Source of the DNA: Eledone cirrhosa
Taxonomy: Eukaryota
Direction of reading: 5' to 3'
NCBI GenBank assembly: GCA_964016885.1
Contig: OZ024741.1
Location: 302,312,001-302,376,000, forward strand
DNA: 64,000 nucleotides
The notes under the pieces were generated by a model. That model was given only the letters and a program-made list of their open reading frames with translations, ran no database searches and was not told the origin of the DNA. Positions 6,459 through 35,850 of the stretch are shown here, one piece after another (positions within the stretch are counted from its first letter, which is position 1; each line of letters opens with the position of its first letter). Made by a program: the position numbers and the translations under genes.

Positions 6459-7750
6459 ATAAATAAATTATACAATTATCAAATTTGTGTTCAAATCATT
6501 TAATAGCTGACGATCGTTTCTTCCAACCTCTCGTTTGGAGTCATCGGAGCATTATCAATGTTTGCACATATAATTACCTTCCTATCCAACTGAACAATAA
6601 TATAGATACATATAAATTGTGAGCAACAGTTTCGTATTTACAGGGTGGAATGGATGTGACATATATTTTACGAGAATTGTACAATAATTGTACAAACATT
6701 CAAGTTAAAATCAAAATCAAAAGCACGCAGTGGAATATATGCAACAGTTAAAACAATATTAAAGAGGCATTGAGTAAGCAGTTTTGAGAAAGGAAGAGTG
6801 CGATAACAAATCATGCAGGCGTGTAGATAGTGTGACTGCGTAAGTCATATACATGAGAAGGAGACAAGCAAAGCTATTATGCATATATAGATGAATAAAT
6901 ACTGCAGTTGAAGCAAATATGTTAATGCATTACTTCCGGAAATTGACGATAGAAAATTTAACGGTTGATCAAATATAGTCTATGAATATGAATTCATAAA
7001 GACTAATTTACAATCCATTGCTCTAACTAACTTAAAACACTCAATATAAACATTAACTGAAATTTAATTCAACATATGTCATGGAAAAGTATGCAAAAAC
7101 TATGTTTCTCAACACACATTCATTCGAACACCATCAACATTCAACACCCACCATAGACTAATATATTAACATATTTGCTTCAACTGCAGTATTTATTCAT
7201 CTATATATGCATAATAGCTTTACTTGTCTCCTTCTCATGTATATGACTTATGCAGTCACACTATCCACATGCCTGCATATGATTTGTTATCGCACTCTTC
7301 CTCTCAAAACTCCTTCCTCAATGCCTCTTTAATATTTGGAGTATTCTCTTGTTTTAACTGTTGCATATATTCCACTCCGTGCTTTTGATTTGAATTTGAT
7401 CTTGAATGTTTGTACAATTATTGTACAATCCTCGTAAAATATATGTCACATCCATTCCACCCTGTAAATACGAAACTGTTGCTCTATATGTATCTATATT
7501 ATTGTTCAGTTGGATAGGAGGGTAATTATATGTGCAAACATTGATAATGCTCCGATGACTCCAAACGAGAGTTTGGAAGAAACAATTGTCAGCTATTAAA
7601 TGATTTGAACACAACTTTCATAATTGTATAATTTATTTATACTGATGTTCATACATTGAGCTATTTCTCTTACTGGTAATAAGGTAATTAAGAAATTACT
7701 GACCTTCTTGTTTATAGTTGTTTATACTATATACATAACTATGAATAGTA
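6459..7750 (+). mobile_element. Fold-back insertion resembling an inverted Penelope-like pseudo-LTR (arms 6459-6926 / 7165-7640)
   Basis: ~470-bp inverted arms, each with a hammerhead motif, flanked by TA-rich repeats. No ORF is visible, so the PLE assignment is inference. Confidence 0.7.
7549..7593 (+). ncRNA. Type I minimal hammerhead ribozyme, U4C core variant (mirror copy 6506-6550, minus)
   Basis: gct CCGATGA ctccaaac-gaga-gtttggaa GAAA caattg TC agc. Stem III is palindromic (ACAATTGT; ACGATCGT in the mirror copy). Confidence 0.72.
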
Positions 7751-7992
7751 TTATTATTATTATTATATATATATATATATATATATATATATAATGTGTA
7801 TATATATATATATATAATGTGTATATATATATATATATATATATATATATATATACGTTATTCCGGGTTGAATCGGAGGTAACCACAGTAAGTAAGGTAC
7901 TCAATACATAGCAGAGTATAACAGTTTTAATATAGATGAGATTCTACAGGACTAGAACTGTTTCATTCATTAGAAATCATCAGGAATCTGAT

Positions 7993-8041
7993 GATTCCTG
8001 ATGATTTCTAATGAATGAAACAGTTCTAGTCCTGTAGAATC
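7993..8041 (+). ncRNA. Type I hammerhead ribozyme within a perfect ~120-bp palindrome 7931-8050 (mirror copy 7940-7988, minus)
   Basis: gattc CTGATGA tttc-taat-gaat GAAA cag-ttctagtc-ctg TA gaatc. Stem I gattc/gaatc, GUA cleavage triplet. Confidence 0.78.
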
Positions 8042-8387
8042 TCATCTATATATATATATATATATATATATAATGTGTATATATATATATATATATATAT
8101 ATATATATATATATAATTGTTTCTACGTTAGGCACAAGGCCAGCAATTAGCCAGTGCATTACTGGTACTTTATTTCATCGACCCCGTAAGGATGAAAGGC
8201 AAAGTCAACCTCAGCGGGATTTGAACTCAGATCGTAAAGGGACGTAACTATGCTGGAAAGCATGGCGTCCGACCCTCTACCGATACTATATATAATGTAT
8301 ATATATATATATATATAATGTGTGTATGTATATATATATATATAATGTGTGTGTATATATATATATATATATATATATATAATGTGT

Positions 8388-9056
8388 ATCATCATCATCA
8401 CCGTTTTACGTCCGTGCTTCCACACTAGCATGGGTTAGACGGGTTGTCCTGTTATGGGCAATGTCCGGTCGGCTGACCATGCCTTGCTCATACAGGAACG
8501 GATTCTGATTGATTCCTACAGCTGGATGCCCTGCCTAACACCAACCTCATTTACAGTGAGTGCTGGGTGCTTTTTTCCGTGGCGCCTACACGTCCACTTT
8601 ACAGTGTGGACTGGGTGCTTTTTTGTAGTGGGAGGGTGTGGGGGCATATTGTCTATATGATTCAGCTTCGGCTTGTACCCGTGGGGGGTTGGGTCTTCTG
8701 TATTACTGCATGACACCAGAGGTCACGGTCGTGTGTCATCGCCTTTGAGCGGTGTAATTGGGTATGGTCGGCTTTTATCACCTCATCCCAGGTCTTCTTG
8801 GGTCTCCCAACTCCGCGGTTTCCATCGACTTCTACTGTTCTGCACCTTTTTATGCAGCTGTCATCCTTCATACGCATCACATGTCCATACCAGTGCAACG
8901 GCCTCTCCTGCACACAGCATTTGATTCCTCTTATGCTCAGTCTCTCTCTCAATTCATTTATGCTTTGCCGTTTGCATATATTACTGTTACACATCCATTG
9001 GAGCATGCAGGCTTCGTTTCTTTCTAATCTACGCAAGTCTTCCACAGGTCTCACTG
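8388..9056 (-). mobile_element. RTE LINE 3' fragment plus SINE-like tail
   Basis: EDLRRLERNEACMLQWMC...LHWYGHVMRM...GRPKKTW, followed by the (ATG)n tail module. Confidence 0.85.
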
Positions 9057-9578
9057 TGTGTGTGTATATATATATATATATATATATATATATATATATA
9101 TATATAATTCTTTCTACTTTTGGCACAAGGCCAGCAATTATCCCAGTGTATTACTGGTACTTTATTTTATCGATCCTGTAAGGATGAAAGGCAAAGTTAA
9201 CCTCAGTGGGATTTGAACTCAGTATACACATATGTAATGTGTATGTGTATATATATATATATATATATATATATATACATAATGTATATATGTATATCAT
9301 CATCATCATCATCATTATTTTACGCCCGCTTATATATATATAATGTATATATATATATATATATATAAAGTGTATATGTATATATATATAATGTGTGTAT
9401 ATATATATATAATGTATATATATAAGTTCCCGTATGAGCAAGACGCTACCAACAACAAGGCAACCCGTCTAACCCATCCTAGCGTGGAAGAACGGACATA
9501 AAACGATGATGATGATAATATATTTATATATATATATATATAGAAATGTATGTATATATATATATATATATATATATA

Positions 9579-10040
9579 TGGTTATATGATGCCTATGTGA
9601 AGAGCGCGATGCTGTATGGTAGTGAGACATGGGCAGCAACTGCAGAGGATATGTGACCGCTGGAGAGAAATGAGGCAAACATGCTCTGTTGGATGCCAAT
9701 GTGCGTGAATGACCGAGCATGGATGTGTTGAGAGAGAAATTGTGTCTGAGAGGGAGAGAATGTAGTGTGCGAGAGAGGAGACTGCGATGGTATGGACATG
9801 TGATGCGCATGGAGGATGACCGATGGGTGAAGAAGTGCCAGGAAATGCTAGTTGAAGGAAGATGTGGTAGAGGTAGACCACGAAAAACATGGGCGGATGT
9901 GGTGAGAGCAGACCTCTGATCGCTGAAGCTCACCAAGGAGATGACGAAGGACCGTGACAAGTGGAGAGCTGCTGTGCTGTGCTGAATAGGACCCCTCCCA
10001 CTCTTGTAAGCAGGGAAAAGTGGACGTAAAATGATGATGA
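9579..10040 (+). mobile_element. RTE LINE 3' end, same family as 2402-3717 (further piece at 21251-21393)
   Basis: RERRLRWYGHVMRMEDDRWVKKCQEM...GRPRKTW, ending GGACGTAAAATGATGATG. Confidence 0.85.
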
Positions 10041-34422: not shown

Positions 34423-34424
34423 TG

Positions 34425-34818
34425 TAGGAGGTGAGTTTTATTGTAGTACAATAAAGCAATGCAGATATCGGATAAGTAGCACTCTACAGTTTGTAGGACT
34501 GGAGTATAAATAATAATATATAAGATCAGAAGATGGTTAAAAGAGTTCCATGTATTTTATTATGCGCATTTCAAAAACAAATATCATCATGCAGTAACAT
34601 TTGCGTTTTCGTCAGATAAAATAGGGAGACATGATATGAAGGTTAAAACACACTTGTGAATAGTGCAGTTTTAAAACTGCACTATTCACAAGTGTGTTTT
34701 AACCTTCATATCGTGTCTCCATATTTTATCTGACGAAAACGCAAATGTTATTGCATGATGATATTTGTTTTTGAAATGCGCATAATAAATACATGGAACT
34801 CTTTTAACAATCTTTTGA
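34425..34818 (-). mobile_element. Spacer-less fold-back Penelope-like insertion (palindrome centre 34672/34673; tail 34425-34524)
   Basis: Arms ~34525-34672 / 34673-34818 with few mismatches and a hammerhead in each arm. Confidence 0.72.
34553..34623 (-). ncRNA. Type I hammerhead ribozyme (mirror copy 34725-34789, plus)
   Basis: tattttat CTGACGA aaacgcaaatgtta...gatatttgttttt GAAA tgcgca TA ataaaata. Palindromic stem III ATGCGCAT. Confidence 0.82.
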
Positions 34819-34909
34819 TGATATATATATATATATATATATATATATATATATATAATGTATATATATATACCTTATCTGTATATATATATATATACAC
34901 ACATTATGT

Positions 34910-35108
34910 ATGACGCCGACGACGGAGCTCAAGCCGTTTCGACGGCTATTTCTGGGCTAAATTGGAATTTAGTCCGGAAATAGCTGTCAAAATGGGTTGA
35001 GGTCTGCCATCGGGCTCATTCATTTTCCTATTACCAACTCTACTACCCTAAGTATTGAGTACTCTGGTGCGTTATGGTCCATTTGGTTCCTTACAACAAC
35101 TCCTTCGT
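34910..35108 (+). mobile_element. Short fold-back (34910-35019) + tail, retaining only the 3' half of a hammerhead
   Basis: Hairpin centred at 34964-34965. The minus strand of the left arm reads GAAAC-gg-cttgagct-cc-GTC. Bulged-hairpin motif at 35037-35060. Confidence 0.55.
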
Positions 35109-35566
35109 TATATATATATATGGTTAGCTGAATATGAAATTCTGTATTATAATCAATAGAGCTCTAAGACAATACTGGACTCATGTACAAGATCTGATCA
35201 TGGAGAAATTCTATCCTTGTCAATAATGCGAATGGAAGTTGTAGATCTTTGAAAGTGCAAATAATACCTCATCTTCAAACATGTGTGTGTGTTTGGCAAA
35301 TAACTACATGATTACCTACCACTCCTTTTTTCTCTCTCTCGATACGTATATACTCTCTCTCTCTCTCTACACACACACATTTTTAATATGATGTATTATT
35401 TGAACACTTTATATGTATAATGTTTGTGTGTGTGTATTGTAGTAGCAAGGGCCGTGTGTATGTATATATATATATATATATATATATATATATATATATA
35501 TATCAATGCTAAAACGCTTCTCAGCACACCAACAAATAGATAAAATGATGATGATATATATATCCT

Positions 35567-35850
35567 TGTATATAAAATATAGGTGAAGATAGGAAAATGA
35601 ACGAATGCAGACATTGGTCCCATCTTGTCAGTTGGTCGCTAAAGATACGTTGTTTTAGTATAATAAATGTGAAGACTAAAATTTGAAGAGGGCTCGATAA
35701 GGATAATATATATATAAAACCGTAAAGCAATTATTTGTTAATAAATATATATTATACTAAAACAACATATCTCTAGCAACTAACTGACGAGATGGGATGA
35801 ATGTCTGCATTCCTTCATTTTCCTATCTTCACCTATATTTTATATATATA
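35567..35850. repeat. Inverted repeat (~35567-35665 / 35750-35850), probably a Penelope-like remnant
   Basis: ~95-bp diverged inverted arms. A CTGACGA is present but no GAAA completes a hammerhead. A bulged-hairpin-like motif lies in the spacer (35692-35728, minus). Confidence 0.6.

Follow-up and report, generated by a model that had tools for sequence, protein, structure and literature searches.

The window analysed here is a 64,000-nt stretch of the 3.0-Gb Eledone cirrhosa genome (OZ024741.1:302,312,001–302,376,000, forward strand), and our finding concerns its positions 6459–35850. This interval is very probably one giant TA microsatellite in which 3′ ends from seven families of Hydra-clade Penelope-like elements (PLEs), truncated on the 5′ side and often arranged back to back, lie together with one non-coding tandem repeat, the ends having probably arisen by twin priming. 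TA tracts make up 13,964 of its 29,392 bases (47.5%), compared with 4.6% in a genome sample of 40 evenly spaced 10-kb pieces (400 kb, 0.013% of the sequence). An earlier reading made from the letters alone, hereafter the sequence-only reading, had proposed an unusually dense community of unrelated, protein-less, (TA)n-targeting insertions bearing hammerhead ribozymes. We named the insertion families A to I, A2 being a relative of A, and L-numbers (L257 and so on) denote loci fetched from the same genome.

2331–34853, unstranded: expanded (TA)n microsatellite, target of all insertions, with a locus-specific ATAATGT interruption
6459–7745, unstranded: family A, 3′ end of a Hydra-type PLE with two arms, core CCGAUGA; short-end arm on the minus strand (core 6547, cut after 6509), long-end arm on the plus strand (core 7552, cut after 7590)
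7856–8051, unstranded: family B, very short two-armed end; long arm with core 7983 (minus), short arm with core 7998 (plus)
17157–17472, minus strand: second copy of family A2, cut by a 200-N gap, 99% like 20597–20910
20597–21260, minus strand: family A2, single arm with mutated core, 72% like A
22212–23890, minus strand: family C, retrozyme-like, a non-coding 591-bp unit present in 2.8 tandem copies; U3-A8 hammerheads with cores at 23535, 22945 and 22367 and cuts after 23458, 22868 and 22291; 3′ end of this copy at +80, 5′ start random
24586–24933, plus strand: family G, single-armed PLE end with a long tail; U3-A8 hammerhead with core 24680 and cut after 24710, one change in stem III
27351–28160, unstranded: family D, two-armed PLE end; core 27998 (plus), cut after 28042; mirror hammerhead with broken stem I
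28233–28615, unstranded: family E, two-armed PLE end; cores 28337 (minus) and 28430 (plus)
34424–34840, unstranded: family F, two-armed PLE end; cores 34615 (minus, long arm) and 34730 (plus, short arm)
34905–35105, unstranded: family H, old end with two arms that breaks off within the hammerhead, of which only the 3′ half is left
35569–35846, unstranded: family I, decayed (79%) palindromic insertion whose end is tail-like and common

Hammerheads were sought with a descriptor for type I folds that required a CUGANGA, CCGANGA or U3-A8 core and allowed at most one defect per stem. It recovered 11 folds in 6459–35850 and none in 35850–64000, compared with a mean of 0.075 and a maximum of 2 in 200 dinucleotide shuffles of the non-TA sequence. 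Every site listed by the sequence-only reading exists, and the hammerheads are real and far more frequent than in shuffled DNA. An earlier descriptor, too strict at the base of stem II, had found five motifs and picked up that of D (27998), whose 4-bp stem I is lost to the stricter stem I rule of the main descriptor. Three sites had been called degenerate or partial: A2 (20804), present in two copies, indeed has a mutated core and H (34910) retains only a degenerate 3′ half, whereas G (24676) is nearly intact, and intact in its family form, with a fully palindromic stem III identical in 9 of 17 copies. All listed sites lie within (TA)n, as proposed. The little primary similarity noted among the insertions holds for most families, the exceptions being A2 with its likeness to A, and E and F, which share stem I. 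In A, B, D, E, F and G, and not in C, H or A2, an AATAAA or ATTAAA stands no more than about 25 nt from the cut; this feature is not general, being found in 9 of 29 motif clusters (each at at least two loci) versus 19% of shuffled hits. Palindromic stem III characterizes 19 of 29 such clusters versus 7% of 57 shuffled hits, and because the descriptor does not ask for palindromy, its enrichment supports selection on the hammerheads. They are predicted to cut as dimers through the palindromic stem III. An Rfam scan gave no hammerhead family among the 150 matches listed of 249, which were microRNA models on TA repeats. Like the minimal hammerheads of metazoan PLEs (PMC4209133), these motifs have one additional nucleotide at the base of stem II, between 9 and 10.1, a palindromic helix III and a U3-A8 variant, form opposite-strand pairs 100–700 bp apart and derive mostly from truncated PLEs; unlike those described there, they include U4C cores (A) and long stem II inserts (C, H).

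The description of the insertions as protein-less applies to the local copies and to C, and fails for seven families that have coding copies elsewhere. For each family, searches of the E. cirrhosa genome yielded between 660 and 2,721 first-look candidates, figures that are not copy numbers, and 40 were scored per search. Long copies of A, B, D, E, F, G and H, followed upstream, led to same-strand reading frames at constant distance. An open reading frame (ORF) lies about 1.0 kb upstream of A in two independent insertions (L101, L102), about 1.0 kb upstream of the matched stretch of D in four independent insertions, 0.2 kb upstream of G in 10 of 14 loci fetched, 1.4–1.8 kb upstream of E in 7 of 20 loci, and about 0.95 kb upstream of F in L106, L130 and L299. 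For H, a frame with reverse transcriptase (RT) and GIY-YIG domains is flanked by intact U3-A8 hammerheads in L171. Family B has a full element (L257) composed of a pseudo-long terminal repeat (pLTR), a 758-aa open frame, a microsatellite-rich untranslated region (UTR) and a second pLTR, and its ORF join recurs in at least five other loci (L250, L252, L253, L254, L263). RT and C-terminal GIY-YIG share one ORF, recovered whole in B (L257), with both parts in A, D, E and H and the endonuclease (EN) part in F and G; D gave a Pfam GIY-YIG match, and the B protein has 1,172 homologues at E ≤ 0.001. CxCX5C and CxxC are present in all seven families, with no CCHH and no GIY-internal CxxC. CxH is found in B, D, F, G, H and A (L102) and is lost in the single E copy read; in the N-termini recovered (B and E), of the clade's RWK and DKT motifs B has RWR and DKT, and E has DKT. 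The seven EN regions, 32–48% identical, fall into one tree group whose support of 85/93 does not reach the tool's star level; separate from it stand six further PLE rows of the same genome: five of CxxC type, which we take to be Neptune-like, and one other. By these sequence features A, B, D, E, F, G and H are very probably Hydra-clade PLEs, and the window copies their 5′-truncated ends. The Penelope-like origin and inverted insertions suggested by the sequence-only reading are thereby borne out, through RT–GIY-YIG joins and head-to-head pairs, and its term ‘unrelated’ fails at clade level.

The single RT–GIY-YIG ORF, DKT (in B and E), CxCX5C linker, CxxC, CxH and lack of CCHH are those of the Hydra clade of C-terminal EN+ PLEs, as are the hammerhead near the 3′ end, the (TA)n targets and the inverted 5′-truncated copies (PMC8557442). 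The same source attributes (TA)n preference and a hammerhead to Hydra-1_Obim and lists one family for Octopus bimaculoides, compared with at least seven distinct families here; by eye, the hammerhead listed there for Hydra-1_oBim does not match these families. Tails here measure 67–166 nt versus 30–40 in the Hydra clade, and B and E exceed 3 kb, with 2–4 kb of TA/TG microsatellite in the UTR of B, unlike the clade as described in that paper. As to identity, the elements are ordinary: they add new families to an already described clade, and both this clade and its TA preference have been reported from the lineage.

The microsatellite block of B lies in the 3′ UTR, between ORF and hammerhead (L257:6065–8000, and in L250, L252, L253, L254 and L263). 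Family B thus spreads sequence resembling its own target, and other PLE ends lie inside the block (L247, L255). The B tail alone, as a query against the same genome, gave no match, an uninformative blank given that the words of this query are very common. A search of the genome with PF01541 returned 10,596 first-look GIY-YIG candidates, and long open frames of 844–1,096 aa in other PLE clades (L071–L073) suggest several recently active clades. Recently active Penelope-like families have been reported from Octopus vulgaris (PMC13282606).

The insertions have variable 5′ ends and two fixed 3′ ends, the latter at distances from the cut of +51 and +160 in A, +15 to +22 and +89 in B, +80 and +245 in C, about +32 and +124 in D, +56 and +140 in E, +56 and +137 in F, and about +60 and +226 in G. 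Of the 54 arms of C, 52 stop at one or the other of these positions, and all 19 two-armed insertions pair a long with a short end (17 exactly, two with short ends at +64 and +74). Automated scoring of the other families gave short+long pairing in 52/52 pairs at loci obtained with tail-containing queries and 37/43 with queries lacking the tail. Six pairs did not conform: L204 and L257 are mis-pairings, L239 has a short end just outside the bin, and L192, L260 and L174 remain. With two 3′ ends, head-to-head pairs and the pLTR–ORF–pLTR order of L257, the layout of a PLE insertion is present. A poly(A) signal was rejected as the cause of the 3′ ends, which lie 15–245 nt on, without poly(A), the signal moreover not being general. 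A literature search whose coverage left out most subscription papers returned no paper that counts short+long pairing or cephalopod hammerheads.

Inverted arms and TA flanks might also be left by terminal-inverted-repeat (TIR) DNA transposons, resembling miniature inverted-repeat transposable elements, that target TA and carry hammerheads incidentally. The ends, however, differ by the tail, arm length is variable, copies with one arm or in tandem are frequent, and the ORFs inside encode RT and GIY-YIG and no transposase; we consider this reading refuted and give it next to no credence, in agreement with the sequence-only reading.

A one-sided tail on inverted PLE copies has been described before, and self-priming or endonuclease resolution offered as its cause (PMC8557442, PMC3846280). 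The same elements could have formed palindromes by self-priming or fold-back of one cDNA (PMC3846280), the short end being a second-strand stop or a resolution site. Fold-back would account for the one-sided tail, which PMC8557442 ascribes to endonuclease resolution, and for alleles common to both arms: at unit position 537, the two arms of C carry the same allele in all 15 insertions that are informative (10 with one allele and 5 with the other, by eye), and private variants are common to both arms in the C loci L208, L210 and L215 (by eye). Yet single-armed C copies stop at either site (6 short, 10 long), and a short-end arm can greatly exceed its long-end partner in length (2.3 kb in L091 and 3.8 kb in L092, versus 0.45 kb), with L101 also showing that either arm can be the longer. 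Because either can be longer, and because the tail of the long arm is absent from the short arm, neither arm is a fold-back copy of the other, and we regard a fold-back origin as unlikely.

Twin priming by an RT dimer would best fit the paired ends; we infer the priming step from the short+long pairing, the shared alleles, and the two start sites and predicted dimer reported for a PLE of another clade (PMC11167929). In that in vitro work, reverse transcription by a Poseidon element begins at two internal sites, one on each side of the tail; both target strands are extended, uncut RNA is the preferred template, and a dimer is predicted. In E. cirrhosa, the GIY-YIG endonuclease would cut both strands within (TA)n, and each freed DNA end would then act as a primer inside the element RNA, one starting reverse transcription at the ‘long’ and the other at the ‘short’ site. 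Both cDNAs would stop early and be joined head to head, yielding a palindrome with a tail at just one of its sides. With every insertion the TA target would be both split and renewed, so that the tract grows and attracts more, and the hammerheads would likely trim multimeric transcripts without setting the insertion ends. The likeness to PAc Poseidon of Anolis extends to two internal RT starts that lie downstream of the hammerhead and delimit the tail, to AT-rich targets and to an uncleaved RNA template; its sites are about 30–40 nt apart, and it shows no strand preference in vitro, whereas the copies here pair one site per target end (PMC11167929). In its widest form, the proposal would make PLE integration a coordinated twin priming in which an RT dimer engages one, often multimeric, uncut RNA at two fixed sites at the ends of a double-strand break, with tail, palindrome and retrozyme arrays produced by the same step, and with hammerheads on the order of 10^5 and self-renewing nests, helped by target-carrying UTRs, as its outcome; our judgement on this generalization is evenly balanced.

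Several observations weigh against this account of Hydra-clade ends laid down by twin priming. Minimum-energy co-folding of dimers yields the hammerhead shape for C and F and in part for A; B, D, E and G do not adopt it. The coding link of H is based on one locus and that of A on two, and the tree was built from EN regions of this genome only, without published reference sequences. L174 is a true short+short pair, and L192 and L260 have an off-site end. A variant in L030 occurs twice in the short arm and is absent from the long arm, which argues for two templates or later conversion rather than for a single template. PMC11167929 reports start sites that were alike on both strands. Among the loci examined, C had no coding partner and no diverged relative.

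Family C looks, from its sequence, like a retrozyme lacking long terminal repeats (a non-LTR retrozyme), likely moved by the same PLE enzymes. It has the corresponding layout, a tandem non-coding unit with one type I hammerhead in each; units are 99% identical between loci, and arrays reach about seven units. The window copy contains no PLE protein match. In these respects, in its dispersed arrays and in a proposed dependence on PLEs, it resembles animal non-LTR retrozymes (PMC7229834; bioRxiv 10.64898/2026.07.22.740005). Its 591-bp unit compares with 150–450 bp typically and up to 972 in the bioRxiv report, and its core is U3-A8. Unlike retrozymes as described in those sources, C arrays carry PLE end marks—two fixed ends and two-armed insertions—so that insertion in array form is favoured, rather than amplification in place.

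For C, the notion of independent non-coding retrozymes appears to hold: no shared sequence outside the unit was seen in 35 arrays (of 698 first-look candidates). Extended to the whole nest, as a community of such retrozymes or mini-elements copied as short units and concentrated here, it is very improbable, and for seven families it is refuted by their joins to coding ORFs; moreover, insertions differ from one another in arm length and junction, and density per TA tract is ordinary. The many near-identical tiny palindromes of B with recurring junctions indicate that some short forms may have been re-copied.

Spread of C by rolling-circle copying of a monomeric RNA circle released by hammerhead cleavage, the model of PMC7229834, is in our view somewhat less probable than not. 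It is in keeping with arrays of up to seven units that carry array-wide private variants (L208, L212, L213, L218) and with copies that run through the cut site. In L210, by contrast, a variant is confined to the second unit from the 3′ end of both arms, as fits a multimeric template (or conversion between arms), and variants are mixed among units in L209 and L217 as well. The 5′ starts of C are spread over the whole unit with no pile-up at the hammerhead cut (3 of 54 within 9 nt). Among contigs matching C, two sequencing runs of undefined type each gave one closed contig of 620–621 nt, which a circle or a tandem would produce alike.

The value of the nest is mechanistic, the origin of inverted PLE structures and their one-sided tails being debated (PMC8557442, PMC3846280). 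Short+long pairing over seven families, alleles shared between arms and the same marks on a non-coding repeat yield a prediction testable in the existing in vitro PLE system, and these end marks tie a retrozyme directly to PLE priming.

Targeting of (TA)n was confirmed: of the 301 distinct 3′ ends counted for A, B, D, E, F and G, 277 have (TA)4 no more than 40 nt away, compared with 970 of 18,811 random positions (5.2%). The claim of unusually high density stands per base and fails per TA tract. The genome sample gave 71 descriptor hits versus 6.6 in shuffles; dropping 19 hits in the AT-rich satellite L191 and five doubtful single hits as false left 47, or 28 when two tandem arrays are collapsed. 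This corresponds to 113 motifs per Mb (bootstrap 48–215), or 68 per Mb (35–113) with arrays collapsed, against 374 per Mb in 6459–35850, about three times the sample density per base. Per TA tract the values are 11/76 (0.145) and 47/275 (0.17), respectively, and 3 of the 40 sample pieces contain at least four motifs and are as dense as the nest, which is dense because it is rich in target. Extrapolation from 0.013% of the sequence gives an estimated 1 to 6 × 10^5 hammerhead motifs in the genome, compared with 2,000–9,000 per genome in PMC4209133; if the estimate holds, at about one hammerhead per 10 kb, this genome would be among the richest known. Further hammerhead-bearing tandem repeats in the sample include a two-armed 311-bp array (L195:6165–7877) and an array of at least 9 kb with units of about 422 bp (L206:279–9567).

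Within (TA)n, the ATAATGT interruption occurs 501 times at 2331–34853, compared with nine copies in the 400-kb sample and none in the flanks. The nest is one locus of 32 kb and, on the simplest reading, would be a single ancestral microsatellite enlarged as insertions split it. The copies fall into blocks of one orientation: plus up to 10953, minus from 13921 to 21942, and plus from 21999. The strand flip at 13921–21942 (a block of about 13.0–21.95 kb) suggests an inversion inside the nest. Sequences either side of the 200-N gap (17473–17672) are 99% duplicates (13420–13915 and 17673–18162; 17157–17472 and 20597–20910), which may reflect assembly overlap, in which case A2 would be a single insertion.

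The nest is not specific to PLEs, because it also contains fragments of LINEs (long interspersed nuclear elements) along with sequences like SINEs (short interspersed nuclear elements). LINE fragments, presumably RTE- and CR1-like, lie at 2337–3690, 8393–9057, 9592–10036, 14664–15362 and 32375–33479, and SINE-like copies at 6229, 8124 and 9115. Two 53-bp 3′ stubs (28985, 30284) of the LINE at 32.4 kb lie in the same TA nest. A 134-aa exon-like frame with a terminal stop (12483–12887), fused to a LINE fragment inside the nest, is possibly a captured or retroposed gene piece. Nearby, a common element forms a 453-bp direct repeat at 11370–12275, and a 50–54-bp minisatellite made up of short palindromes occupies 12969–13425. 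Just before the window, L109:2117–6004 holds an open frame of 1,296 aa that includes poly-Q and a stretch resembling an AT-hook, and another frame, exon-like, comes later at 60644–60997; these two frames, for which we found no Pfam match and no homologue, suggest that a host gene has the nest in one of its introns. No hammerhead could be assigned to family I (35569–35846), and a common family sharing the tail of 35640–35740 (L115, L270, L299) appears, by eye, to carry a U4A-core hammerhead with a long stem III.

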